From assembly GCA_003971905.1 (NCBI GenBank), contig RSEE01000006.1:124001-188000 (forward strand): 64,000 nucleotides of DNA, given 5' to 3'. Source of the stretch: Moniliella sp. 'wahieum' (taxonomy: Eukaryota). A program made the translations under genes and the position numbers. Below, piece by piece: positions 88 to 59,806 of the stretch. The notes beneath the pieces were generated by a model. It had not been told where the DNA came from. It was given only the letters and a program-made list of their open reading frames with translations, and searched no databases. Every line of letters starts with the position of its first letter. Position 1 is the first letter of the stretch.

Positions 88-2243
88 ATGACCACTGCTC
101 CGTCGCAGGTCAAGAAGGATGCGCATCCATGGGACCGCGCTCTGCTCGAAGGGCTGATCACCAAGCGCTTTTTCTACAACCCCTCCTTTGAGATCTACGG
201 CGGTACGTGTCCCTTGTCATCTCTTGTCTGATCTCAGATCTCAGATCTCACTTCTCACTGGCCAGCCTGCGCCTCCCCCTGTCTGCCCACTCGCCTCCTT
301 CCGTTTCTTTGTTTCCTTGCTTTCTTTTGCCTCGCGGAGCGCTGACAGCCCGTCTTGCTCTGGTAGGTTCGGGGTCTGTACGACTATGGTCCGACGGGCG
401 CGGCGTTGCAGGCCAACATTATCTCCGAGTGGCGCAAGCACTTTATCCTGGAAGAGGACATGCTCGAGGTCGACCCGACCATCATGACGCTTGACGAGGT
501 ACTAAAGACGTCGGGCCACGTGGAGAAGTTCACCGACTTTATGTGCCGGATGTGAAGACGGGGACATTTTCCGTGCGGACCACTTGATTGAAGGGGTGCT
601 AGAGGCGCGGTTAAAGGGCGATGCGGAAGCGCGTGCGTTGGAACAGGGCAAGACGATTGACAAGTCGGCCGATGCCCGGACGCCAAGGACGACAAGAAGA
701 CAGCCAAGAAAAAGAAGATCAAGTCGACGGCGGTCAAGTTGGCAGACGAGACCAAGGCGGAGATTGAGTACGTGTTGGCGCAGATTGATAACTACACCGG
801 CCCGCAACGGGCGAGCTGATCACCAAATTTGCCATCCGTGCCCCCGAGACGGGCAACGAGGTGACCGAACCCGTCGAGTTCAATCTCATGTTTTCCACGG
901 AGATTGGTCCGACCGGGACGCAAAAGGGCTACCTCCGCCCCGAGACGGCGCAGGGCCACTTGTCAACTTTGCCCGCCTTCTCGAGTTTAACAATGGTCGG
1001 ATCCCCTTTGCGTCGGCGCACGTCGGCAAGTCGTTCCGCAACGAGATTAGTCCGCGGGCCGGGTTGCTGCGCGTGCGCGAATTTGTCATGGGCGAAATTG
1101 AGCACTTTGTTGATCCCGAAGACAAGAGTCATCCCCGCGCTTTGCCGAGGTGGCGCAGTTGACGCTACCGTGGCTGCCCAAGGCTACGCAAGAAGCGGGC
1201 AAGACGAGCTTACCTATGCTACCGTGGGCGATGCGGTGGCGCAGGGCATGTGCGACAACGAGACGCTGGGGTACTTGTTGCGCGGATCTGGCAGCAGTTT
1301 CTGGAAAAGATTGGCATGGACACGACCCGTATCCGTTTCCGCCAGCACATGCACAACGAAATGGCCCACTATGCATCCGACTGCTGGGACGCGGAAATCA
1401 AAACGTCGTATGGTGGATCGAATGTGTGGGCTGTGCAGACCGAAGCGCGTACGACCTTACGGTCCACGCTCGTACATAAGAAGGACCTCGGTGCACCAGC
1501 TCTTGACCGAGCCCAAGGTGTACGAAAAGTACATTCCTACTCTCAACAAGAAACTGCTCGGTCCCAAATTCAAAAAGGACGCCAAGGCAGTGGAGGAGCA
1601 GATTCTTGAGATGGACCAAGCCCAGCTCGAACGCTTGGCCCACGCCCTCCAAGCGTGCCAAGCCACGATCACCGTCGGTGGCCAAGAGCGGGAGTTGAGC
1701 TCGGACTTGGTCACGGTGGAGCACAAGACAGTCAAGGAGCACACGCGGACGTACGTACCGAATGTGATTGAGCCTTCGTTTGGCATGGGCCGGATTTTCT
1801 ATGCCTTGCTCGAGCATGCGTTTTGGTCGCGCGAGGAGGATGCGCAGCGTGGCGTGCTGAGTTTGCCTCCGCTCGTGGCACCGTTCAAGGAGCTGATCGT
1901 GCCCATTTCGTCCACCAAGGAGTTCCAGCCCTTGGTGCGCGAGGTGACGCGCAAGTTGCGTGCGGCTGGCGTCGCGAGCCGGGTGGACGATAGCAATGCG
2001 ACCATTGGACGGCGGTACTCGCGCAACGATGAGCTCGGCACCCCGTTTGCCTGCACCCTCGACTTTGCGTCGTTGGAGAAAGGTACGATGACGCTGCGCG
2101 AGCGCGACACCACGTCCCAGCTCATTGGCCCGATCGACGAGGTGATTGCGGTCATCAAGGGCTTGTCGGATGCCACATTGACCTGGGAAGAGGCCCAGAC
2201 GAAGTTGCCCAGCTATAGTGGCGAACAGGATGTACAGCAGTAA
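88..2243 (+). CDS. GRS1: Glycyl-tRNA synthetase (eukaryotic alpha2 type); intron ~203-366; several apparent indel frameshifts; possible in-frame upstream start at 4
   Basis: Peptides across frames: [133 protein letters not shown], and anticodon-binding [21 protein letters not shown]. Intron GTACGT(203)...GCTGAC...TAG(366). Confidence 0.95.
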
Positions 2244-2682
2244 GCTAACTCATCCCCTTTGTTCCTGTTCCTGCACCTGCACTGCACCTGCTCTTACTCC
2301 CTTTTGTTTCATTGTCTATCTTTCCCCATACCTATCATCGAATGCAACGCAGTGGTCGGTTGCTAGTAGTCTGTTAGAGGTACCCAACGTCCATCCAAGC
2401 ATGGGAACAGCATCAGGATATACAATTAGTCAAATCGAGGAGGAAGGATCTTAAACCGGGTGCAGAGACGTGGTGCGAGGGAAAGCGCGAAATAAGTACA
2501 CCCTGACACAAAGAAAAAAAGAAACGATGGACAAGAAAGCGGGGAGGAAGAAAAGAGGAAGAGGGAAGGGCATACACAACACCAAAGCGCGACACTGAAC
2601 CTGAACCTCAACGCAGTAGGAGACACAGTAGGGGGAGGAAGGAAAAAGGACGGGGGGGGGGGAGACAGGGGTCGTGCAGCCG

Positions 2683-4235
2683 TTACGCCCAGACGGGGTC
2701 CTGAATTTCGGGGCCTTGCCAACCGAGTGAACGACCCAGCCGAGCTTGCGCAACGCTAGCGGATTGACAATGTTGCGGCCATCAAACAGGAAGGCTGGCT
2801 TCTTGACACTCTGGTAATCTTGGCCCAGTCCAAGGAGCGGAATCGTCCCATTCGGTAATGATCACCACTGCCTCTGCGTCCTGGCACGCCTCCTCGGCCG
2901 AGGCGGCAATGTGGACCTGTTTTTCGTACAGGTCCGCATCGGACTGAACCCCGGGCTCGGTCAGGTCGAGGAAGATCTGGTCCCTGGACACCTGGGGTCG
3001 TAGATGGAAATATGAGCATTCTCGTTGCGGAAGGCTTTGCAGATACTGATCGCTGCCGTTTCGCGCGTGTCGCCGGTATCCTTTTTGAATGCAAATCCAA
3101 GCACGGCAATCTTCTTGTTGGTAATTGTGTGAACAGCGTCTTGATGAGACCTTGTTGGCGAAGCGATCTCTTGCTGTACTCGTTCATCTCCACCACTTGT
3201 GCCCAGTACGCTGCTACCTCGGGAAGACCCAGACTCTCTGAGAGCTGTGTGCAACAGTCAGTAGACCTCATAGAGAGGGAATGATGAATGAGAGAGAGGG
3301 AGGGAGGGAGAAGAAAGAAAGAGAAAATAGGAGAATGGAGACGCACGTAAACCAAGTTGAGGATGTCCTTCTGGAAACAAGAGCCACCAAAGCCGACGAG
3401 GCCTTGAGGAACTTGGGCCCAAATTCGGGCGTCGAGGCCGCATGCATGAGCAAACCTCTTCAACGTTGGCAACGGTCGCTCGACAGATGGCGGCCATGGC
3501 GTTGATGGAAGAAATGCGCTGGGCGAGAGGAGAGCGTTGGCGGCGAGTTTGGAGAGTTCGGAGGACCAAAGACCAGTGGTGTAGATACGTTGCATGGGGG
3601 ACCACAGTTGTTGTACACCTCGGCCAGGGCGGCGGCAGCCTTGGTGCCGCTCTCGCTGGGCAGGGAGCCAATCAAGACGCGTCGGGATTTTGAGGTCGGA
3701 ATGGCGGTGCCTTCGGCAAGGAACTCGGGGTTGGACAGAATGTCAAAACTGCAGGCCCGGGCGCGAGTTGGATTCGAGAATGACACGCATCGAGGCCGCG
3801 GTGCGGCAGGGCACCGTTGACTTTTCCACAATGATCTTGGAGCTCTCTGCGACGGCGGCGATGCGAGGGGGTAGAGGCGACATAGGCCAGGTCGGCAGCA
3901 AAGCCTTTGCCGACGCGGGACTTTTTGGTGGGCGTGTTGACGGAGACAAAGATGAGGTCGGCCGTCGCGGATGGCAGCGTCAATGTCGGTGGAGAAGAAG
4001 AAGGGTTGCGGCCGCGGCAGCTCTTGACGACGTGGTCGAGGCCAGGCTCGTAGACGGGCAGGTGGTCCGAGTTCACGCCGCAATGAGGGTGGGGTTGACA
4101 TCGACAATGGTGACCTGGATGTGAGGGCAGCGCTGGGCAATGACTGAAGGTGGGGCCGCCGAGTAGCCGGCGCCGATTGCCAGCAGATCTTGCGGGCGGC
4201 GGGCGGGTGGGGGACGAGGCGGAGGGGACGACCAT
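2683..4235 (-). CDS. UGD1: UDP-glucose 6-dehydrogenase; intron ~3245-3346; indel frameshifts
   Basis: [88 protein letters not shown] (catalytic Cys), [25 protein letters not shown]. Intron GTGCGT...TACTGAC...CAG. Confidence 0.94.
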
Positions 4236-4870
4236 GGATGGGGGGGGGGGGGGGCAGGTGGAGGGGGCAGGCAAAAGGGAGGGATGGTCCGATGGGGTGG
4301 CGAGGGAGGCGTCTTTTATTGGCGGCTGGCTACCCGAGGCTGTGGGACGCAGGCGGGCGGGCACAGGAGCGGCGGCGTGGGCCAGGGTGCTGACAGGCGC
4401 TCTGGCTGGGCGGGGTGAGCGGCGAGGCGAGGGATGGGCGGGGCGGTAGGGGGGGGTTGGAGGCGTGCTGATCGGCACGTGCGCGTGGGCGAGTGCGGGC
4501 GAGTGCGTGCTGGGCAGTGCTGGGCAGTGCGGCGACTGGCTGGGCGGTGTGCGCGTCGATCGGAGGGCGCAGACTCAGATTCGATGCAGACAGTGTCGAT
4601 CAGCATCGGTCACGCCGCCCAGGCACCCAGCCCAGCCCTCGGTTGCTGGCGAATACCGGTGGGCAAGCGCTTGGCAGATCCATCTCCGACGCCTGTCCTC
4701 CTCCAGCGCCCTCCTCCCGCCCCCTTTCTAGGCACCCGAGGCGGCCGCGGAGGAGCAGGCACGGGGCGGTGCTGTGGGTTCTTCGGCTGCTGCGCTTCGG
4801 CATTCGATGTCCAACGTCGATTGTCGACGTTCGACGTTCGGCTGGGACGTGGGGGGGGTAGCACTTAACA

Positions 4871-21860: not shown

Positions 21861-24800
21861 TCATACAGCGCATCGCATCGCATCTCGAGCGGCAGGCACG
21901 GATCGACTAAGGTTTACCGCGTCCACCGCGTCGGCGTGGGGGTGCCGGGAAGAGACATGATAGAGCGGTAAAACGTCGTGACCTGGGACGGGGGCAAGTC
22001 CGTTCGGTCTTGCGCAAGTCAGCGCACTGGGATGACGCAACGGCGCAGCATGTTGGGACGAGGTAGCTGACGCGGCACGCCGACTGGCAAGTCGGTGCGG
22101 TACTTGGACTTGCAGCTCGCGCATTTTGCCCTTACGTGTGGACCGGTGCGTGTCAAGGTACCCGACTGGTTGTGGGAGCTGCGTAGGTGTAGATTGCGCC
22201 ATCGGACCGGGTTGGATGCCTGTGGTTGTGCCTGTGGCTGGGAGGGCGGGAGGGTGTGGGGTGGTGGCTGTTGGGGCTGTTGCGGGACCGGTTGCGGGAC
22301 CGGGTGGGGGACCGATTGCGCGGCCGGTTGAGGGGCGACAGGGGTGGCAAAGTGGACTTGTTGAAGATGAAGTTTTTGCTGATGCTGGGCAAGTTTGTAG
22401 CGCTGATCTTCCTGCAGGAGCGTAGCGAACGATTGTTCCATCAGCTTGGATGCCTTGGAGCCTTCTGGCGGCAAGGTCAGGGGGAAGAAGGGTGGGGTGC
22501 CGCTCCGGGCCGGTGGACACCAACGTCGGCGATGTTAGCGAGGTGGACCAGGACCCCCCACTTGCGCGTTTGCGAGGTGACAGACTGGCAGTTGTGGCGT
22601 GGCTGGGCTCCCAGCCTGTTGAGCCTGGAGGACCCGGCGCGGGCAAATTGCTCCCGGCCCCATTGGCATTGACATTGGCATTGGCATTGGCATTGATATT
22701 GGCATTGGCGTTGGCATGCACAATGGACAAAGCCGCCGAGCCAAACGGTACAGGCTCGACCCCTACGCCGGACCCACCCAGAGCGACCATCGTCGGTCCA
22801 ACAGCTACGGAGGACGCGCGCGATTTGCGATGCATGCCCCATGGCTGAGCCGGGATCGATCCGGCTCCGAGCAGGGGGGCAGGAGGAGAGGGGGACGGGT
22901 CGACGGATCCGGATCCTGAACGGGAAAACGAGCCGGAGCCAGAGCCGGAGCCAGAGGCGGACCCGGACCTCCTCTCCCCCACGGCGCTGGTCCCAGGCGC
23001 GTCCGGTCCGGTCGGCATGGTAAGCACGCCAGAAGAGGTGGGGGAGACCAAGGACGTGCGCGACCCAAAGGAAAACGCACTGAACTGGTTCTGCAGGCCT
23101 GCGGCGCCGTCGCGGGGGCGGAGGTGGTCGGGGCCAAACTGGGCGAAGGGAGGGAAGGGAGTAAAGGCAGAGGAAGCAAAGCGAACCGAGGTACGTTGGG
23201 CCACCAGAGGAGAATCTAAAGGACGAAGCAAGATGGCGAGACGAACGTGGGCCTTGATCATGTCGAGGTAGAGTTGGTTCAGCTGGTTGGCCAGAACGAT
23301 GGCTGCGGCCATGAGGCGTTCCTTTGTACTTTTTTGCAGTGGCGTCAGGACGGAAAAGTGGCGCGCGGTACGCTGGTACGAAGGTAAGGCCGAATCGGCC
23401 GCTTCGAGCACCGCACGCGCAGACTTGATCTTCTCTTCAAACTTGCTCTCTAGCTCGGCCAGGCGCGTCTCTCGCGCTGTCGAGTCACGTTGGCTCTGCG
23501 AGTCGCTACGTAGCGCGTCTGGTGCACCACTGATTCCGCGTGCGGAAAGGCTGCTGGCTCGGCCGTCGGGGGTCAGCTCCTGGCTGCCCTGACTGCTGGC
23601 CGTCGTGCTGCGTCGTTCGGCCAATGCGTCTTGGGGCGTCAAACTAGCAGAGATGGCGGAAGCCGTCGAGCCACGCCGCACACGCGCCAGCGCAATCAAT
23701 TCGCCCTTGGTAAACCCGTCCACCTTGCGTACCCCGGCCCAGCGCATTGTCGCTGCAAAGTTGATTTTCGCCATCCAGTCGTCCCGGTCCGACAAGGACG
23801 AAGTCTGGAAGAGAAAGAGACGCTGGACGTTGGTGCTGGGGTTGTCGCTGCGTACCTTGAATGCGTTCGGCACCTTCTGTGTCTCCTCGTCGCAGAACGC
23901 AACCGCATCGTACAATGGCACGAGATAGTCCGGGCAAAAGTTGGAGATGACATCGTCGGCCTTCTTGGGGTCCTGAGCGGCCTTGATCAAGCGCTGCAAC
24001 ACCATATCGGCATACGACGCGTCTTTAAAGATGACCAGCTGGGCACTGGTAAGTAACAACCCCCAGCGCCGAGCGCGCGAGGAGGATGAAGACCAATTGG
24101 ACGACACTGGTTTCCGCACCGAGATGCTGTCCGACTCGTCCCGCCCATGCACCACATCCAGCTTGCAGACACGAATGGTGTTGATCACCTCGGTGGCCGG
24201 GGCTGCGACCGATGTGTATACCGCCAGGGGAGGAAGGCGAGCCCATTGCAAGGAGGACCGGTCCAACTGGCGGAACGAATGATGGGCGCATCGCAAAAGT
24301 GGTGGAGAAGTTTGATAGCATCGAGGGAAGTGTAGTCTTCCATGACGCGCATGGAGGATTGCAGCGTGAACAGGCGGGCCAAGTCGTCCGACAAGTCATG
24401 GTATCGTCCGTTGAGGAGCAGCGGGTACGGGTTGCCCTTGGACTTGAACCGTTTCTTGTCTTTGGCCTGGTCCGCATACACAAACGGGGCACACGTCACG
24501 TTGTCGTACATGTACTCTAGCAACTCCATCGACTGCATCGACTGGATGATGCCCGAGGTGTTCCTGACATAGTCTGCCTTGGTCATCTTGGTCTTGAGGT
24601 TCTTGTTAAAGTGGTCAGTATGCAGAAGCATGACGGAGGTGGTAAGGATGTAGGGGGGATCTGAGGCACCAGCACGTTAGCATACAGGGGAAAACGATCA
24701 CGTAGGAATGGCGGTCAACGCACCTGGATTGGTAAAGATGTCTGAATTGGCCTGGGCATACCGAATGGCGAACGCCTCGAGCATTCGATCAATCTGCTGC

Positions 24801-29995: not shown

Positions 29996-32900
29996 ATGGC
30001 CCCGCGGCGCAAGTCAACCATCAAGAGCGACGACGACGACGACGAGGATGCACCTCTTGTATGTTCTGCCTGCCCCCACCCACTGCACCCTACTAACCAG
30101 GCCTCGTACGCTTCACCCACACCAGGCGACCATGACCAGCAATTCCAGTGCCCGCCTCGCTCTGCCGGCCGCGCTTCTGGGCGTCCCAAGCCAGCTGCTG
30201 AAGAGAGTGAGGAAGATGACGAACCGCTTGCCAGATCGGCGGCCAAATCGGAGCATGACAGTTCATCCGACAGCCTTGGTGGTTCCTCCTCCTCGTCTGA
30301 AGACGAAGAAGGGGGCGAGAGCTCGTCGGACGAGCTGGATGACGACAGAGCCGGGACGCCATCGACCAAGCCCATCTTCTCTGCTGCGCGGGGGCGCGGG
30401 GGCAAAAGTGGGAGACGCTGTACCACACCGGACCCCGTTTTCCACCCGACTATGAGCCTTTGCCTTCGCATGTGAAATTGCTGTACGACGGGTGCCGGTC
30501 GACCTGCCGCCGGCAGCGGAGGAAGCGGCCATGTTCTATGCGGTCAAGCTCGAGACGCAGCATGCGCAGAACCCGTGTTTAACAACAACTTTTTCAGTGA
30601 CTTTAAAAAATACTTGGCCAAGTACCCGCCCCGTGGTGCCTCGGCCGACCTCAAGATTGTCAGTTTCAGCAAGCTCGATTTCCGTCCGATGTATGAACAT
30701 TGGAAGCAACTGAAAGATGATGAGGCGGAGCGCAAAAAGATGTTGGCCCCGTCCCAACGCAAAAAGGAGTTGGCCGAACGCAAGGCGGCCGAAGAGGCAA
30801 TCAAGACGTGCATCGTCGATGGTCAAGTGCAACGCGTGGGCAACGTGTTGGTCGAGCCGCCCAGCGCTGTTTTTGGGCCGCGGCGCCCATCCCAAGACGG
30901 GGTTGATCAAGAAACGTGTCCAGCCCGAACAGATCACTATCACCACACCCTCAACGACCCGAAGCATCCGCCGCCTGCCCCGCCCCAGGGCCATAAGTGG
31001 AAGAACGTGATTGAGGACAAGCATGCGACCTGGCTCGCGTTTTGGAATGAGAACATCAATGGCTCGCACAAGTACATGTTCCTCGATGCCACCTCGACGT
31101 TCAAGACGGGCTCGGACAAGGCCAAGTACGAAAAGGCGCAGAGTCTGGATGAGTCGGTCAAGAAGCTGCGGGCCAACTATACACGCATGCTGTCGTCCAA
31201 GTCGCGCAAGGAGCGGCAAATTGCGACCGTGATTTGGTTGATTGATGTATACTCGCTTCGTGTGGGCAACGAGAAGAAGGAGGACGAAGCAGACACGTAT
31301 GGTGCCTGTTCGCTCTTGAGCGAGCACTGTACCTTGATTGAGCCCAATATTGTCAAGCTCTCGTTTTTGGGTAAGGACAGCATGAAGTTTGACGACGAGT
31401 TGATCTGTACCGACCAGGTCTTCGGAACTTTAAAATGTTTGCCCGCTCCCACGCCAAGGACAAGAAGACCGGACGATTGCCTTGAAGCGCAAGGAGGATC
31501 CGATCTTTGAGGTGGTGGACCCGGCTGATGTCAACAAGTGGCTCCAAAAGCGATCGAACGGCGGGATGCCCGGTCTGTCCGCCAAGGTGTTCCGTACGTA
31601 CAATGCGTCGACGACGTTCCAAGCACTGCTCAACAAGACGGAGGAATGGCTTGCCGCCCGGCCCAACCCAGACGAGCGGGTATGGAACCCGGCCAACTTA
31701 AAGTTGGCCTACAATGAGGCCAACCGCCAAGTGGCCATCTTGTGCAACCATCAAAAGACGGTGAATGCAGCAGTTGCACAGCAAGACGTTGCAGCGGTCG
31801 GACGAACGTACGTTGCGCTTCGGTACGAGCGGTACAAGGAACTTCAAAAGCTCAAGACGGTTGGCTCGATTGCCGAACTCAAGAAACAGTTCCCTGCCAA
31901 GGACCACGATTGGGCCAAGCAGTGGAACGTGGTGGCCGAGGAGGTCAAGATCCCGGTTGCGGACATCAAGGCGCATGAGGAACGTGTGGCCGAAGAGAAA
32001 AAGGCGCGTCTGCGCGCCCGCTACGAGCGGGACATGCGTGAACGACAGTACCTCACAGAGCAGGCCAAGAGCACTTCTGCACGTCCCGTGGCGCTAAGCA
32101 GGAATCGGATGAGGAGGATGCGAAACCGCTCAAGCGGCGCAAGGTGTCCCAAGGTCGCAAATCGGTCAAGCCAGATGAGGACGAAGACGCGGCGTTGGAA
32201 GGCGCCAACCTCAAGTTCAAGTCGCAAGCTCAATTGGACGAAGAAGTGGCCAAGGTGGATGCGCACCTGGCCGAATTGGCCGAGGAGCGCAAGATCAAAA
32301 GTCCTTGGCCAAGACCATCAACGTTCCCGTTGTCGCCCGTCGCATCTTAGCCAAGGTGGAAGCGATCAAGAAGGTGCGGCAGAACGGACCAATAAGGAAA
32401 ACACCAAGGAGTTTCCTCGGCACGTCGAAACTCAACTACATTGATCCACGGTGCACGGTTGCCTGGCTCAAGGAGTGGGACCAAAAGCTTCAATCGTCCG
32501 GGTACGGCAAGGGCAAGGCGGCGCCCAAACGGGCTTCGAATGCAGAGCTAAAAAAGAAGAGACGGGCAACGGGAATGGTGACGCGACCAAGGCGTCAGAG
32601 AAGATGGAGTTGGGCTTGAAGATCTGTCGGTGGTGGGTATGTTTTTCCCATGACGATGCAAAAGAAGTTCAAATGGGCCGCGAGGACGACAATGGTCAGC
32701 CTTGTCGGCCAAATGGCAGTTTGTCAGCCCCCCGAAACCAAAATGCGCGTCATGAACTGGCGCAAAAGAAGCAATTGAAGAGGGGGGATGCGGCGCTGCG
32801 GCGCCTCTTGCCAGCTCACGAGGTGCAACTAAGCAGGAAAGCGAGGACGAGGATGAGGACGATGCGCCGCTGGGCCAACGGCGTACAAGCCAGTGGATCG

Positions 32901-51047: not shown

Positions 51048-53148
51048 CCCTGGTGGCGCCCCTAAGTAACCCCGCAAGATGAACGGTTAGGTTTAGACGT
51101 AGCGTTCCCCCTGTCCCAGCCTTCTTAAGTCTGCCAATGAAATGGAAGTTACTAGAGATATCACACACCACTCACTACAGTTTCGATGTTTTGTTCACTG
51201 GTGTCACTTCGCGCTCTCCCACAGCTTTTCTCTCGCGGTTGTTGTATGGCTCCTCTCTGCAGTGCCCTTTTGCCCTGTAGAACAAGCTCTCGTATACCAT
51301 CTGCTATAGAGGCGTCGCCATGCATAGCGGGCAATCCTATTATAAAACCAGTGCAGTCACCCATTGCTGTCAGAGGCAAAACTCCCACACTGCACGCAGC
51401 TCCCTGCTGTAAGTCAATATACGCGCATCAATGATTCCTCATCTCTTCCATAGTCTCATCACGGTGTACTCCACTCCGGGTGAGGCTCTGACAATCCAGG
51501 GGATCTTTTTCATATGCTCTCTCGGACTTTATAGGCCAGTGGAGAATCGAAGTGGTGGTGGTCATATAGTGGTTCTGTTTGAAGCACGCACACCCCGTGT
51601 GATCATGTTGATAAGGGGGGGGAAAGAAGCGCATCGTCGACTACGGCAATGCCCCTGCCGTTTTTATTGTATCGGTTTAGTACGTTTATCAGAGGAGGAG
51701 CCCAATAGTGGTACGTGTTCCTACAGCGTTTCGCTCATGAACAACCCCTCCCAGTACTAGAAGGCCAGCGCAACCTCTTCTCCGACGGTCCCGTTGTCAA
51801 TTCTACTAATGAAGAACTGAGAGTATTGACACGATTGACGCTTTCGGAAAAGCAGCATGATACACATCTCTGGAAAGGAGCGTTTGTCCCACACAAGGGT
51901 ATAGTTCCATGCCCAACAACCATAACATATTTGCCCAGGAGAATACAGAGTGTATGTATAGGGGGCCAGGGTGATGCAGGTGATGACATGGTCAAGGCAA
52001 GGCATTATGGCCCTTACATCCGGAGTAGTGCCGACCGCGTTTCGGGCTTACGCATTAGCGCTTCCGTCCGAACCACAAAAAGAGGGTGAGCAAACGATGG
52101 TGAGACAGGAGTTACACACACACGCAGTCACGATGGACACAAGGGGTGTGGTCTGTGCGCTTGCCGGCCGGGGGTAAGAAGAGGGTTTTATATCGCGCTT
52201 CAATGCGTTGGGGAGGCGCAGAAACGCAGCCAACGCGTGCCCGTGCACAGGAAGCTGCGTTCTCTCACCAGTAGCACCAGTTTTCCCCAGTTTGCTTCAA
52301 GCTTCATCGATCATCTCTCCGCATGTGTCTCAAGTTCCACACATACGTTCCACAAGCTTCACTACACGGATACAATAATCCGGCTCACTCTCCCCTTGTG
52401 TCGCTCTCTCTAAATCAATCATTAACCGCGGTTCTCATGAGATGTGACATGCATGACATGTGATACTTATACTGTGCCCCTTTTTCAAGTCAACAGAGAG
52501 AGTATGGTTAAATTAAAAAAAGGTTATCGGTTACCGATGAAGCTGATGAAGCTATGTAGAAAAGGCAAGAGCGCAGGGACAGTTGATGGTGTCGTATTGC
52601 ACATTGCACGTGGGGCTACAGAGGCTCAAGAATATTCCTGCCCTCCACAGTAGAGGAATATTGGAAGGAATGAACCGGAAGGTTCAGGCCCTTGTGTGGC
52701 TATCCGCGCTACCACACCACAGTGTGGCGTCACAAGTTGGTGAAGCTTCGTTTTCGCCTGGCTTGATTAGCTTGATCATATTATCTATAGCCGAGAGACG
52801 ACAGTATATATGCATAGTGTGGTAACAGTCGATTTGAGGACATCATGCTGTGAAGACGAGACAATTCGGTGATGCCGATGATCGTGTGAAGAGAGTCCTG
52901 ATATGTGACAGAGGGGGGTCTTTTCGACCGCTCTTACAGAGGTGTTAGGAGAACTCATCTAGTTTTGCTTCCAGTTTCCAGGGGAGAAGAGGAAGAATGA
53001 AGAAGAGCAAGGGGAAAAAGAGAAAAGAAAAGAGAAAGAAGAAAAGAAAGGAGAAGGACGAGAAAAAATATTGGCGTGTATTGGGTTCCACCAGGAAACA
53101 CCTGTGACCATCGATATAGTACAGGTGTACAACAGAGGGTGGGCACCA

Positions 53149-55024
53149 CTAATAGAAATGCCGATCGGCGCGGTGATATCCAGAGCTCTGGCCTCGCAGC
53201 TCAACTTCCTGCATGATGGGATCTGCAATGGACTGCAGGTTCCTTTTCATTTCCTCATACATCTCCTTTGAAGCCTGCTCCGTTGGGCACTGTTCCTGCC
53301 ACACAAACGACTGGTTGATCGCCTCTTCCAGGACCTGCCTTTCGCTTGAATGGAGCTTGCCCACAGTATCATGCTCTTCCAGCCAGCGACGCATACGGCA
53401 GGCGTACAAATCCAACTCATTTCTGGCTTTAATCCGTGCCTCCGCTTCTTGATCATTTTCTTGTACTTCTCCGCCTCCGACACCATGCGGGCAATGTCCT
53501 GCCTCGACAGGCGACCGCTATTGGTGATGGTCAAATCGCCTGCGAATTCGTCTTCTGTTCAACGGCCGACACCTTGAGAATAGAGTCGGAGTCCAAATCA
53601 AACGTCACAATAAACGAAGACACACCACGGGGAGAAGTCGGGACGTCAGTGAGCGTGAAATCGCCCAGAAAATGGTTGTCAACGGCGCGCGGCCGCTCAC
53701 CCTCGTACACGGGAATAGTGCCGGAGATCTTCTGACGGCGTTGGCTATAAGGCAACGTTTGGAAGAATCGCCACGACTTGGTGGGCAATGTTGAATTGCG
53801 TTCAATCACAGCACTGAACCCACCACCCTTTATTCCAATACCCAAAGATAGGGACCACATCGAGCAGAATCAGTTCCTGGTTCAACTCGGTCGGGCACCC
53901 TCGAGAATAGCAGCCTGGATGGCGGCGCCATAGGCAACAGCCTCGTCGGGGTTGATTGAGCGAGAGTGAGTGTGCGCCCGTCAAAGAACTCCGTGAGAAG
54001 GCGCTGCACTCGAGGAATCCTTGTTGACCCCCCAACCAAGACAACGTCAGTCACGTCATTTTTGTTAACGTTCGCGTCTTGCAGGACACCCTCAACAGGG
54101 CCAATAATACGGGCAAACAGGTCTTTGCACAACTCCTCAAAGAGGACCGGCTGATAAGGGCGATAAATCAATGCCCTCAAATAGACAGTCGATCTCGATT
54201 GTGGTATGTTCAGCCTCCGAAAGACTGCGCTTCGCGCGCTCGCAACAAGTACGGAGGCGACGAGAGCGCGAGGGTTAGATGTGAGGTCCCTGCTAAATTG
54301 CGTTTGAATTCTTCAACACAATGGTCGACGAGAGGGTGTCAAAGTCTTCGCCACCTAGATGGTGTCACCGGAGATGGCCTTGACTTCAAATTTCCCCTTT
54401 GTAATCTCAAGCAACGATACGTCAAAGGTACGCCGCCAAAGTCAAAGACGAGGACAGTGCGTTTATGTTCAGGCATGGTGTCCAACCCGTAAGCAATAGC
54501 AGCAGCTGTCGGCTCGTTGATAATGCGCAAGACGTTCAGCCCAGCAATGGTACCAGCGTCCTTGGTTGCCTGGCGTTGGGAGGTTGAAGTAGGCAGGTAC
54601 TGTCACCACAGCATCCTTTACAGGACCGCCAAGGTAGGCCTCGGCCGTCTCGCGCATCTTGATCAGAATCATGGACGAGATTTCCTCGGGAGTGAAAATC
54701 TTCGTATCGCCCTTGTATTGGACTTCAATTCCCGGCTGACCGTCCACATCAACCACCTTGAAAGGCCAGTGCTTCATGTCAGACTGGACCACCTCATCGT
54801 CAAATCTGCGCGATAAGTCGTTTGGCATCAAACACGGTGTTGGATGGGTTCATGGCAGTCTGCGCGAACGCCTCCTCACCGATAAGCCTCCCATGTCGTT
54901 GAAGGCCCATAAGAGGGGGTGGTCTTTAAGCCAAGGTTGTTGCGAATGATCGTGGCCCCGTCGCCCTCATGAATGGAACACATGAGTAGGTGGTGCCAAG
55001 ATCGATACCGATTGCTTTGGTCAT
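53149..55024 (-). CDS. Hsp70 paralog B: cytosolic-type NBD, divergent SBD, no EEVD
   Basis: [127 protein letters not shown]; ends ...[26 protein letters not shown]. Confidence 0.9.
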
Positions 55025-55125
55025 GGTAGGATTGGAGAGCGGCGAAGTGACGGGGGGTGGGGAGAGAGGCGGTGGTGTTGGTGAAGGTGTGTAGTGCGTA
55101 TGGTTAATTCGGCATCGACACACTC

Positions 55126-55132
55126 TTATATA
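55126..55132 (-). promoter_or_regulatory. Probable TATA box of Hsp70 paralog B
   Basis: TATATAA on the minus strand about 100 bp upstream of the ATG at 55024, in GC-rich context. Confidence 0.55.
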
Positions 55133-55153
55133 TCGACAGATGCCCTTGCCAAT

Positions 55154-55330
55154 TGTCACAGTCGGGGCTAAGGCGAGGGAGACCAGGATCGGACTAGGCC
55201 AAGGGGTGTAGCAATCGTTCGTGGGGAAGAAGCAAGAACAGAGGACATGGTGCGAAGTGGAAGGAACAGGGAAGGAGCGAGACGCTCGAGAAGAAATTGG
55301 AATGGGAGCGAGATCAGCCAAACTATGACA
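55154..55330 (-). repeat. 3' LTR
   Basis: Starts TGTCACAG and ends ATGACA on the plus strand; direct repeat of 58635-58811. Confidence 0.95.
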
Positions 55331-55343
55331 TTGCCCCCTTTCA
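55331..55343 (-). other. Polypurine tract
   Basis: Minus strand reads ...TGAAAGGGGGCAA immediately before the 3' LTR (TGTCATAG). Confidence 0.75.
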
Positions 55344-57281
55344 GACCTCATCTCCCGGGCGGCGACGGAGGCGAGAGAGGGCGAGTCGGCGGGCATGGGA
55401 GACAGGCTTAGGGGGAGAGGCGTGGAAACGGACCACTGGCTCGGCGTCATGAGACATGTCCGCAGCGGGTACCCACTCCCGCTCGTGGACAGGATAGCCC
55501 CGGAAGTGAACAAAGTACTCAATGCGGCCACCACGACCCTTGCGGCGAGAGTCGAGGACATGTTCAACCTCGTGATGAACCGCACCATCATCAGCATACT
55601 CGGGGAGAGGAGGCGGGGGCTCAATCAAGCGGGCAGGGACCACGTCACCAGGGGTGTAGGCTCGCAAGCGGGACACATGGAACACGTCATGGAGGTGTAG
55701 GTAGTCGGGGAGGCGGACCTGGTATGCGGCGCGGCCCACGGCGCGGACAATGGGAAAGGGGCCGAGGTAGCGATAGTCGAGGCCGTCAGAAGGCCGCTGG
55801 CTGGCCACATAGCCGTCCCGACGGACCAAGACAGGCTGGCCAGCAGTGAAGGAAGCCGCCTCGGTGCGCTGCTGATCGGCTAATGCTTGTAGCGGTCCTG
55901 GGCCGCGGCGAGCGTGCGGCGGGCCACCGCCTGGGCCGAGCGCAAGTCCTCCAAATATGGCGCAGCATCGGGCACGGGCGAAGTGGAGGGCTCCACCCCC
56001 CGGGGAGAGTAACCATAGGTGAGGACAAAGGGGGACTGGGGGTGCTCGAGTGGGAGGACGAGTGTAGGCGAATTCGGCCGTGGGGAGGGTCGAACCAGTT
56101 GGACTGCTGCTCGTCGAGGTAGCAGCGGAGTACTGTTCGAGGATCTGGTTGAGTCGCTCAGTCTGGCCGTCCGTCTGGGGGTGGGACGCGGTGCTGAGGC
56201 TCGACTTGATGCCCAAGTCGGCACACAAGGCTTGCCAGAAGTGGCTTGTGAAGGTCGGTCCCCGATCACTCACCAGATCCCGGGGAAGGCCATGGTAGCG
56301 AAAGACATGGTGTACAAACTGGCGTGCGAGCTGGGGCGCAGTGTCCGTCGTGTGGGCGGGAATGAAGTGACCCATTTTGGTACAACGATCCACCACCACC
56401 AGAATCGCGTCGTAACCATTGGATCGGGGAAGCTGGGTAATGTGGTCCATCGTCAAGTGGGTCCACGGGCCTTGGGGAGGGGAAAGGGGCTGAAGGGGTC
56501 CGGCGGGTTGGTGGCAAGGCGCTTTGGTCCGTTGGCAGCGGTCGCACGAGCGCACGTAGGCCCACACGTCGGCTGACAGGCGGGGCCACCAATATTGAGC
56601 GCGGACACGGGCCAACGTCTTGTCGCGCCCTTCATGGCCCGCCAATGCCGAGTCGTGGGCTTGGTGGAGAATGGCAGCGCGGATCGGCCGGTCGCCGGGG
56701 ACGTAGACCTGGTTTCCGTGCCACAAAAGACCGTCGCGGACCGTCAAAGCATGGGGAGGTGGGCTTGGAGCCGTAGCAAGGGACCAACGAGGGTCACGAG
56801 GCACGAGTTGGCGGATGCGCTGTCGAATCTCGTCGGCAGACGCTCGCTCCACCACCGGTGTATCGGGGTCCGCCGCCATGAGCTTGAGGGCGGCGGCAGA
56901 ACGTTCGGACATGGGCTCCGCCAGTACTTGAGGTGCCGCGCCAGCGGGCCGGGAGGGAACCGAGGAGGGAAAAGGAATCGAGTTGACAGAGGGGGGCGAG
57001 ATGGGGTTAGATGAGGAGGTGGACTTGGGCCGGGGCCCGGGCGAGTGCTGGTGCTGGTGCGTAGTCTTGGTCTTGGGCTGGTCTGGGTGCTGGGGCTGGT
57101 CTTGGGGCTGGGGCTGGTCTTGGTGCTTGGGCTGGTCTTGGGGCTGGGGCTGGTCTTGGGGCTGGGGCTGGGTTTGGGGCTTGGGCGGGAGTTTGGGGCT
57201 TGGGCGGGAGTTGGGGCTTGGGCTGGGCTTGGGGCTTGGGCGGGAGTTGGGGCTGTGGCCGGGGTCAGTCGTGGAAGGCAT
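55341..57281 (-). CDS. Pro/Gln-rich linker + integrase (HHCC, DDE core, GPY/F) + chromodomain
   Basis: HDSALAGHEG...YWWP...CDRCQRTK; WTHLTMDHITQLP, ILVVVDRCTKMGHF, HGLPRDLVSDRGPTF, HPQTDGQTERLNQ; YLGPFPI...HDVFHVSRL; chromodomain HEVEHVLDSR...EYFVHFRGYP..EREWVP. ATG at 57281, 7 nt after the gag stop. Confidence 0.92.
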   Translation of the reverse strand: MPSTTDPGHSPNSRPSPKPSPSPNSRPSPKLPPKPQTQPQPQDQPQPQDQPKHQDQPQPQDQPQHPDQPKTKTTHQHQHSPGPRPKSTSSSNPISPPSVNSIPFPSSVPSRPAGAAPQVLAEPMSERSAAALKLMAADPDTPVVERASADEIRQRIRQLVPRDPRWSLATAPSPPPHALTVRDGLLWHGNQVYVPGDRPIRAAILHQAHDSALAGHEGRDKTLARVRAQYWWPRLSADVWAYVRSCDRCQRTKAPCHQPAGPLQPLSPPQGPWTHLTMDHITQLPRSNGYDAILVVVDRCTKMGHFIPAHTTDTAPQLARQFVHHVFRYHGLPRDLVSDRGPTFTSHFWQALCADLGIKSSLSTASHPQTDGQTERLNQILEQYSAATSTSSSPTGSTLPTAEFAYTRPPTRAPPVPLCPHLWLLSPGGGALHFARARCCAIFGGLALGPGGGPPHARRGPGPLQALADQQRTEAASFTAGQPVLVRRDGYVASQRPSDGLDYRYLGPFPIVRAVGRAAYQVRLPDYLHLHDVFHVSRLRAYTPGDVVPARLIEPPPPLPEYADDGAVHHEVEHVLDSRRKGRGGRIEYFVHFRGYPVHEREWVPAADMSHDAEPVVRFHASPPKPVSHARRLALSRLRRRPGDEV

Positions 57282-57288
57282 ATGGTGA

Positions 57289-58594
57289 TCACGGCACTGC
57301 GCCTTGAGCGCGGCGCTCGGTGCGCCGGGCCGCCGCTTCAGCGGTGGCGGTGACTGCGCTGAGGTCCATGGGCTCCGCTTCGGGCGACGAGGGCCGAAAC
57401 CAATGATTGCCGCCCGATCCCGGGGAGATGGCGGTACCATGAGCGCCCAGCGATTGCGATTGGTCGATGTCAATGGCCGCTGTGCGCAGTTGTTCGAAAC
57501 TGATCCGTCCCAAGTGAGCCGACTCGCCGCGGGAGGCGATTGCGTCACGCACCCGCGGCTTCAAGCCGTACAGAAAGCAATAGTAGCGGTCCTCATCCGA
57601 CGCGTTGGGGTTCCAGCGACGCAGCAGAACCGTGAACGTAGCGGAATAGTCCGCTGCAGATCCCGTCTGCCGAAGACGACGAAACTCCTCAAACGCCTTC
57701 AGCGCCGGGTTGCGCTCGCCCCACTGCTCCAGGAAAGCTGCGCGAAACGCAGGCCAAGACTGGAGGGCGGGTGTGGTGCGCGCCTCCAGGGGAAGGGCCA
57801 CCTCCGAGCCGAACTGCTCGACCCAAGTGAGGGCCCTCTCCCTGCAGCAGGCCCATGAAGCGGTCGATCCATGCCGCCGCGCCCATATGCGTGAGGGCGA
57901 CGCGCGCGTAAATCTCGAAGGAGGTGACGACGTGCTGGGCCTGGACCCGGTCACGAGAGTTGGGATTCGCACCAGACGACGGGCGGAAACGAACGGGCTC
58001 GAACATCTTAGGCTCTTCCGACACCGTGTTCGGGATGGCAGTCAGATCACCATAAGGCCCAGGGGCGGGAGCGGGGGCGGGGGCCGAGGACACCACGCCA
58101 GTTTGAGCCTCCCGTACCGAGGCGGCCAACCGGGCCTCTTCCGCGGCAAGCGCCGCCTCCTCCTGCCGCTGACGGAGGCGGTGCTCACGGCGCTTCGCCT
58201 CTTGCTCATCCTCGAAAGCGCGGCGCTTCGCCTCTTGCTCATCCTCGAAAGCGCGGCGCTGGTCCTCCTGGGCTGCAAGGTAGGCCTGATTTTCCGGGCC
58301 TCCGTCAACAGAAGCTGGCGCATTCTGCGGGCCTCATCGACCCGACGCTGAGCGGCCTCGAGGCCCAGCCCGACAGGTCGGAGGCAGGCAATGTATACCC
58401 CGGGGGCGCGGCGCAACAGACGGAGCTGCATGGGGGGTCCAGAGGGGCCAGCCGGGTGGAACCACTCCGGGCCATCGTCGTCGAACGGAGCGTCAGAGGG
58501 GGGGTCGGACGGGGTCGGATTGGGCCGCGCCGCCGATGGGTTGCGGCGCGCTAGGGTTACTGGGGTCAGGGGGGTTGTCGTGGATCGAGGACAT
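57289..58594 (-). CDS. Retrotransposon Gag (capsid); no CCHC knuckle seen; frameshifted
   Basis: LQGEALTW (joined across one indel), SWPAFRAAFLEQWG, EFRRLRQTGSAADYSATF, FLYGLKPRVRDAI, LRTAAIDID, EPMDL; likely start MSSIHDNPP at 58594. Confidence 0.85.
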
Positions 58595-58624
58595 CTCTGG
58601 TCGGGCTCGCCTGTTGACGGTTAG

Positions 58625-58633
58625 ACGAACGAT
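58625..58633 (-). other. Self-priming-type primer-binding site
   Basis: Minus-strand ATCGTTCGT next to the 5' LTR is the exact complement of ACGAACGAT inside the LTR (58694-58702). There is no TGG tRNA-type PBS. Confidence 0.75.
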
Positions 58634-58634
58634 A

Positions 58635-58811
58635 AGTCACAGTCGGGGCTAAGGCGAGGGAACCAGGATCGGACTAGGCCAAGGGGTGTAGCAATCGTTC
58701 GTGGGGAAGAAGCAAGAACAGAGGACATGGTGCGAAGTGGAAGGAACAGGGAAGCGAGACGCTCGAGACGAAGAAATTGGAAATGGGAGCGAGATCAGCC
58801 AAACTATGACA
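58635..58811 (-). repeat. 5' LTR
   Basis: Direct repeat of 55154-55330, followed by TSD CCAAT. Confidence 0.95.
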
Positions 58812-59806
58812 CCAATATTACAGAGCCACTGCGGCATATGCCATTTACATATTATTGTTTTAGGTTACCGTCGCCAGCTGCGCTGAGTGGGCGCTGCCTG
58901 TTGATATGGGAAACCCTGGCGTGGGTTGCGTTTCAGTATCCTAACTAGTAGTATATGGGATCGAATTCGGTCTGCGTTCACCAGGTCCTCGCGTATGCTT
59001 CCGTCGAACCTCGTCACGGACCGCTCACGGATCAAGCTCAAGCGCAATAAGCGCATCGTCGTCGATTATCGATGAAAACCGACTTCTCCTCTGTGGAGAG
59101 GGGGATAACATGCCTGGGCTCCCGCATTTGTTTAGAATCATGTCCTTGCGTGTCGACCGATCCACTCAATCCACAGGAGGTATTACTACCGGTCGATCAC
59201 CGATAACACCATGACACGTTATAGTAGTTGTGCTTTGTGGAAAAGCAGAACACTCTACTACTTTTCTAGACGCAAAACTTTCACGTTGGACAGCTATAAT
59301 TTGAGATCTGACGGTAGCTTAATGAGCAGGAATGAGGTTGCGATGGAGTAGAGCGAGAAAAGAGCGTGGCGGTAACAAGGAGGCAGGCAACTAGCACAGG
59401 AGGAAAGAAGATTGAAGAGAAGGAAGCGGGGGCTGCGCGCGCCAAGCGCAGCGGGCGCGGTGCAGCCCCGTACAGGTGCCGGTGCGGGGGTCCGGCGCCA
59501 GTTAGGCACAAGCTATTATCGAATCATTAGTACCTTCCACACCTGAGGCCTGACATACAACACAAAGTAGGTGTCGTATGTCACTCAGCCCCTAAAACCG
59601 GTTTTGTTACGCCGCCGAACGAAACCCCATGCCTCGCCGCTAGGATGTTGTTGGACTCGTCGCTGCTCTCATGTTTCATTAGACGCTACCTTTACCTCTG
59701 ACTGTGTGGGCAGATATATGTATGTGTGTTGCAACCCGTTTCGTCCTACTACTAGGTAGAACCCTCATGTAATAATCCACAGCACTGCGCCCGCTGCTTC
59801 GCCTCA

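Follow-up and report, generated by a model that had tools for sequence, protein, structure and literature searches.

Is an element that carries gag and an integrase, with none of the enzymes that a retrotransposon needs for its own replication, a parasite with an architecture of its own, or a full-length element that has lost part of its pol gene? This question is raised by a long terminal repeat (LTR) element at positions 55154-58811 (minus strand) of a 64,000-nucleotide stretch of contig RSEE01000006.1 from Moniliella sp. 'wahieum' (assembly GCA_003971905.1, contig positions 124,001 to 188,000, forward strand). That whole stretch is called the window here, and all coordinates are its own. 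The element was delimited by direct reading, repeat search and Pfam matches. It retains gag and an integrase (IN) with a chromodomain, and it lacks protease (PR), reverse transcriptase (RT) and RNase H (RH). An original prediction, made from the DNA sequence alone, had taken this arrangement for an evolved architecture with a dedicated start codon and a dedicated linker. We instead favour, with a probability of roughly 0.6, the view that a Tf1/sushi-like Ty3/gypsy chromovirus lost PR-RT-RH in one step and that this copy is the resulting deletion derivative.

The absence of the three enzymes is supported both by homology searches and by motif scans. Four full Pol proteins (P0152, P0005, P0161 and P0009) and the integrase-only protein P0001 were used as tblastn queries over the whole window, and their significant matches in the element are confined to its integrase part. 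For P0152, the closest full Pol protein, the match spans residues 662-1186, with 59% identity over the region searched and 67.6% over 204 ungapped residues. Residue 662, which corresponds to window position 56939, falls at the AAPQVL motif, directly after the end of RNase H in P0152. From position 56940 to the end of gag, tblastn found no resemblance to PR, RT or RH in any frame. A motif scan of three frames likewise detected no DSG or DTG, no CCHC and no ADALSR motif of the RNase H end, and the only YxDD-like strings (YADD and FDDD) belong to integrase and gag contexts. Ty3/gypsy elements carry gag and a pol gene in the order PR-RT-RH-IN; this one has gag and IN only, and is a derivative rather than a complete member of the group. 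Because gag and the integrase-chromodomain are present but PR, RT and RH are not, the copy is non-autonomous, unable to replicate alone. On both the missing enzymes and the dependence that follows from their loss, our results agree with the original prediction.

The ends of the element are those of a Ty3/gypsy retrotransposon. Its terminal repeats are direct, not inverted, with TG...CA termini, and they are flanked by a target-site duplication (TSD), CCAAT, whose 5 bp fall within the 4-6 bp of the group. It was read directly at 55149-55153, next to the 3' LTR, and, in identical form, at 58812-58816, next to the 5' LTR. The 3' LTR (55154-55330, minus strand) and the 5' LTR (58635-58811, minus strand) are each 177 bp long, run TGTCA...TGACA in the orientation of the element and were located by repeat search and by alignment of the two. 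A 36-nt LTR probe had two matches in the 64-kb window and none in 100 shuffles, which places the pair well outside what chance would give. The polypurine tract GAAAGGGGGCAA (55331-55342, minus strand) directly adjoins the 3' LTR upstream, as expected of the group. Thus the intact TSD and the polypurine tract described earlier are both present. The near-identity of the LTRs was borne out as regards substitutions, of which there are 0 in 176 aligned positions, but the pair also shows four indel events (1, 3, 3 and 1 bp), and the innermost base of the 5' LTR is different as well. LTRs free of substitutions and an undamaged TSD point to a copy that is probably very young, in line with the recent mobility proposed before.

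Between the LTRs, three regions can be read on the minus strand. The gag region (57289-58594), defined by translations and Pfam, begins with an ATG at 58594, ends at an apparent TGA at 57289-57291 and changes frame at least three times. One of its frames contains a Retrotrans_gag match at 57556-57843 (E = 3.5e-7). A perfect 33-bp (11-codon) tandem duplication (58188-58260; 2.2 copies, 100% matches) is also found in gag, where it sits in the coiled-coil-like N-terminal part. The end of gag reads ...PMDLSAV...RRAQG and has no CCHC knuckle. It is followed by a P/Q/S-rich low-complexity spacer (56940-57281) without homology to PR, RT or RH, within which lies a tandem array with a period of 18 bp (57049-57259; 11.7 copies, 84% matches) that corresponds to the Pro/Gln/Ser repeat linker noticed originally. 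The integrase occupies 55344-56939, with its stop codon at 55341-55343, and was delimited by Pfam and tblastn. It comprises an N-terminal extension, the HHCC motif, the DDE core, the GPF/SH3 region and the chromodomain. All four Pfam families typical of a chromovirus integrase were matched, namely Integrase_H2C2 (E = 2.9e-22), rve (1.1e-10), SH3_Tf2-1 (5.3e-14) and Chromo (3.5e-7), which confirms the domain reading made from motifs, and all catalytic motifs are readable in the long open reading frame (ORF). This ORF is not what it seems, however. The linker had been described as running in frame into an integrase, but comparison with P0001 and P0152 shows that the true integrase frame is broken three to four times between rve and SH3 (about 56130-55880), the ungapped frames being -3/-2/-1/-3. 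The long linker-integrase ORF stays open across the rve-SH3 stretch only by chance, because GC-rich DNA has few stop codons.

Frame breaks of this kind are not peculiar to the element. All three housekeeping genes examined in the window, encoding DNA topoisomerase I (TopoI), Hsp70 and UDP-glucose dehydrogenase, are split across frames. In TopoI (30197-32541, plus strand; 2.35 kb), comparison with the 83%-identical protein P0263 reveals at least nine frame changes, or 13 when two short excursions are counted, and these cannot be introns, since protein and DNA positions are contiguous. The density of frameshifting indels in this essential gene is thus about one per 180 bp. The Hsp70 gene (52950-55024, minus strand; ATG at 55024-55022) has fragments that match the HSP70 profile in each of the three frames, and the N-domain of UDP-glucose dehydrogenase (2500-4700, minus strand) is distributed over three frames as segments 39-103, 106-141 and 143-181. 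The element itself has about seven frame breaks in 2.9 kb (at least three in gag and three to four in the integrase), which is no denser than in the host genes. The window therefore looks like an unpolished, indel-rich assembly.

This has consequences for how the element can be read. We considered whether the breaks in gag and integrase mark an old, dead and decaying copy, and rejected this explanation, as the host genes are broken equally or more densely. The LTR pair, differing by indels only, shows the same error signature as the host genes, which points to a young copy whose LTRs may be truly identical and whose gag and integrase ORFs may be intact in reality. By the same token, the gag stop, the ATG at 57281 and the frame relation between spacer and integrase cannot be trusted. 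The original prediction relied on all three. A gag ending in a stop codon before any CCHC knuckle is indeed what the assembly gives, and the scan for CCHC was negative, but the stop itself may be a product of assembly indels; similarly, the ATG 7 nt past that stop is present, but in such an assembly its frame relation is no evidence of a dedicated start. The data fit a single gag-spacer-IN ORF like that of Tf1 just as well as they fit two ORFs. With the start, stop and frame details void, and with a spacer that may be parental, as argued below, the case for an evolved architecture falls away. The practical lesson is that the indel errors of this assembly make ORF-level arguments unsafe.

The composition of the element can be explained most readily if a single deletion of about 2 kb within pol took out protease, reverse transcriptase and RNase H, so that a P/S/Q-rich segment behind gag became fused with the first part of the N-terminal extension of the integrase. 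The copy would have kept the parts that act in cis (the LTR ends, the priming site and the polypurine tract) along with gag and the integrase-chromodomain. The deletion may have arisen by template switching during the reverse transcription that yielded this copy, which would then have been born deleted, or it may have occurred shortly after integration. Rearranged elements are known to arise by template switching (PMC13570524). In either case, we infer that the enzymes would have been supplied by a full-length sibling located outside the window.

The spacer, located upstream of the AAPQVL motif, fits this scheme if it was inherited. Among related Pol proteins, we took the 16 stored relatives that have protease and RNase H motifs and at least seven residues upstream of DSG; in five of these 16, the segment preceding the protease is rich in P, S, Q and T (44-86%). 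Such segments in relatives mean that the spacer can be parental and need not be a new linker. The simplest reading, by analogy with these proteins, would be that it represents the parental segment between gag and protease. A different source was considered in the low-complexity linker between RNase H and integrase of P0025 from Tilletia indica. It was rejected because it is not positionally homologous: the P0025 linker lies downstream of QPILRP, and the spacer of the element lies upstream of the equivalent AAPQVL.

Several observations weigh against a one-step deletion. The breakpoints fall neatly at domain boundaries, leaving the whole of gag and the whole of the integrase with its N-terminal extension, which is what selection for an element composed of gag and IN would also give. 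All catalytic motifs of the integrase are present, and the 18-bp period of the repeat array is a multiple of three. The parental origin of the spacer is argued by analogy only; the spacer resembles the N-terminus of P0161 weakly (E = 0.066 and 0.77) and in frames other than that of the integrase, and we discarded these matches to the pre-protease region as low-complexity noise. Finally, searches of the window, the protein collections and the metagenome and viral contigs turned up no full-length sibling. The neat breakpoints are the sole hint of design, and a single deletion between two spacer regions explains them equally well. As for the intact motifs, the copy is so young that they are uninformative about selection.

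The search for siblings, relatives and a partner covered several collections. In the 64-kb window, blastn with the element matched only the element itself and its LTR pair, and neither a second copy nor an autonomous partner nor any other Pol homologue was found there by blastn and tblastn. For gag, none of 4945 candidate longer proteins scored as a relative, the comparison with the gag of P0005 was not significant (E = 0.079), and none of 251 pattern matches in metagenome contigs was confirmed. For the integrase, an exhaustive protein search returned 83,744 proteins at E <= 0.001, the best of them 48% identical overall, and the best match in a length-restricted search was 59% identical. In viral contigs, six integrase pattern matches were obtained and none confirmed. 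Seven integrase loci were found in metagenome contigs, and these were rejected as siblings or partner because, at 35-43% identity, they are too distant.

The region just inside the 5' LTR bears on the affiliation of the element. In the self-priming Tf1/sushi group, the 5' end of the transcript complements the primer-binding site (PBS) right after the 5' LTR, and no transfer RNA (tRNA) primer is used. The PBS reported originally was not recovered as a tRNA-type site: no such site, with its TGG, follows the 5' LTR, and the window contains no tRNA genes with which a priming site could be compared. Instead, the 9-mer ATCGTTCGT in the PBS position, 2 nt past the 5' LTR (58625-58633, minus strand), is exactly complementary to ACGAACGAT at LTR positions 110-118 (58702-58694, minus strand). 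Nine nucleotides is the longest complement, and this length was reached in only 2 of 5000 LTR shuffles. We regard the pair as a candidate self-priming site of the Tf1/sushi type, in place of a tRNA PBS.

The 3' LTR of the element faces the Hsp70 gene, which has the same orientation and whose start codon follows 129 bp farther downstream. Promoter-proximal insertion by a stress gene recalls the behaviour of Tf1. The target duplicated at this position (55022-55153 region) is CCAAT. Specialists in fungal transposable elements may find two points of interest here, the candidate for Tf1-like self-priming and the position of the copy upstream of Hsp70.

Among the alternatives to a one-step deletion, the one that survives best is the original reading. 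The copy would then belong to an established family of non-autonomous elements that an autonomous chromovirus mobilises in trans, with Gag and the chromodomain integrase contributed by the family itself. A gag-spacer-IN product of such a family would be packaged via Gag and freed by the protease of the partner, or else the integrase would be translated separately. We consider this unlikely, although a number of features agree with it. The breakpoints at domain boundaries, with the gag domain and all IN motifs kept, and the repeat period divisible by three are what a functional family might show; the absence of LTR substitutions, together with the intact TSD, suggests that the deleted form may itself have transposed; and, as the breaks in the element are no denser than the noise in host genes, both ORFs may be intact. 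Against this, only one copy was seen, neither the window nor the collections searched gave another copy or a partner, and intact motifs would be expected in so young a copy even without selection. The arguments from start, stop and frame are void in this assembly. Moreover, the described forms are gag-only partners and derivatives with decayed domains (PMC11302176 and PMC13570524), and no functional family composed of gag and IN was found described in the open-access literature.

A more specific claim appears slightly more doubtful still, namely that the copy comes from a propagating chromovirus lineage which gave up PR, RT and RNase H and in which selection maintains Gag and the chromodomain integrase. 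If it were true, the parasite would determine its own packaging and where it integrates, in this case at the promoter of a stress gene, and would borrow only the replication enzymes.

It is also conceivable, but quite improbable, that the gap in pol is an artefact of assembly or consensus building, in which a full-length element lost about 2 kb, for example by collapse between similar P-rich tracts. The assembly is of low accuracy, TopoI being shifted in frame by an indel roughly every 180 bp, and the junction lies in or beside a tandem low-complexity array. Errors elsewhere, however, are indels of 1-3 bp and not losses of kilobases, and the type of noise suggests long reads that would be able to span a 6-kb element; the flanks, LTRs and TSD are also coherent.

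A gypsy-type integrase without RT would also be found if the element were no retrotransposon but a cut-and-paste DNA transposon of the Ginger type, or a gypsy-integrase gene that has been domesticated. Ginger elements, however, have inverted termini, and the direct LTRs and the gag gene already refute this reading. The polypurine tract, the complement of the priming site, and a TSD and LTR ends of the LTR-element type also speak against it, so that its probability is close to nil.

As for the genomic surroundings, a TopoI fragment (30476-32441) is 71% identical to the protein of Tilletiaria anomala; its best matches reach 82-83%, and other Ustilaginomycotina 50-56%. Judged from its sequence, the host is a smut-related basidiomycete of the Ustilaginomycotina that is absent from the protein collection searched. 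A Pfam survey took in 142 ORFs, out of 271 in the window that reach 110 amino acids or more. It additionally placed a class II aminoacyl-tRNA synthetase, whose parts fall into two frames, at 506-2240 (plus strand) and a large Sec7/PH-domain protein at 21864-24676 (minus strand).

Comparison with known systems places the element close to the Tf1/sushi chromoviruses, such as Tf1 and Tf2 of fission yeast and Tcn1 of Cryptococcus. It shares with them a Ty3/gypsy integrase that bears the SH3_Tf2-1 fold signature and carries a chromodomain at its C-terminus, and an insertion close upstream of a gene transcribed by RNA polymerase II, here Hsp70. It also has no tRNA-type PBS, and the LTR stretch that complements a site just after the 5' LTR is a candidate for their mode of priming. 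Unlike them, it has no PR, RT or RNase H, its candidate complement is 9 nt long, and its gag has no detectable relatives among the candidates searched, the comparison with the gag of P0005 not being significant. For Tcn1, an element of a basidiomycete, self-priming has also been proposed (PMC7175516).

A second point of reference is provided by non-autonomous elements that carry gag without RT and are mobilised in trans, including TR-GAG elements, BARE-2, RLG_Quinta (with its partner RLG_Cereba) and RLG_Sabrina, as reported in PMC11302176 and PMC13570524. Like TR-GAG and LARD-like elements, ours has no RT and so could not replicate alone. In contrast to it, TR-GAG, BARE-2, RLG_Quinta and RLG_Sabrina lack an integrase in those accounts; RLG_Quinta, for instance, is stated in PMC11302176 to encode only GAG together with a domain whose function is unknown. 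The same paper describes families of the TR-GAG type as multi-copy, each with a named partner that shares the PBS and the LTR ends, whereas our element is present as one copy in the window.

Closer in content are the elements of sugar beet, where PMC13570524 lists 15 non-autonomous families with partly decayed RT, RH, INT or chromodomain, 8 of which also keep GAG/PROT remnants. These resemble our element in retaining partial pol, including integrase and chromodomain, together with gag, and in being unable to transpose alone. They differ in that their domains are described as partly decayed, while our element has all IN motifs and its damage is the indel noise common to the host genes; they are also plant elements, and ours resides in a fungus. 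Set against these systems, the element as it stands is most likely a fungal LTR retrotransposon reduced by an ordinary deletion. Should the gag-spacer-IN junction turn out to be present in multiple copies, a parasite with its own targeting integrase would represent an undescribed division of labour, known partners contributing gag only, and would allow a test of whether the choice of integration site travels with the parasite and not with the helper.

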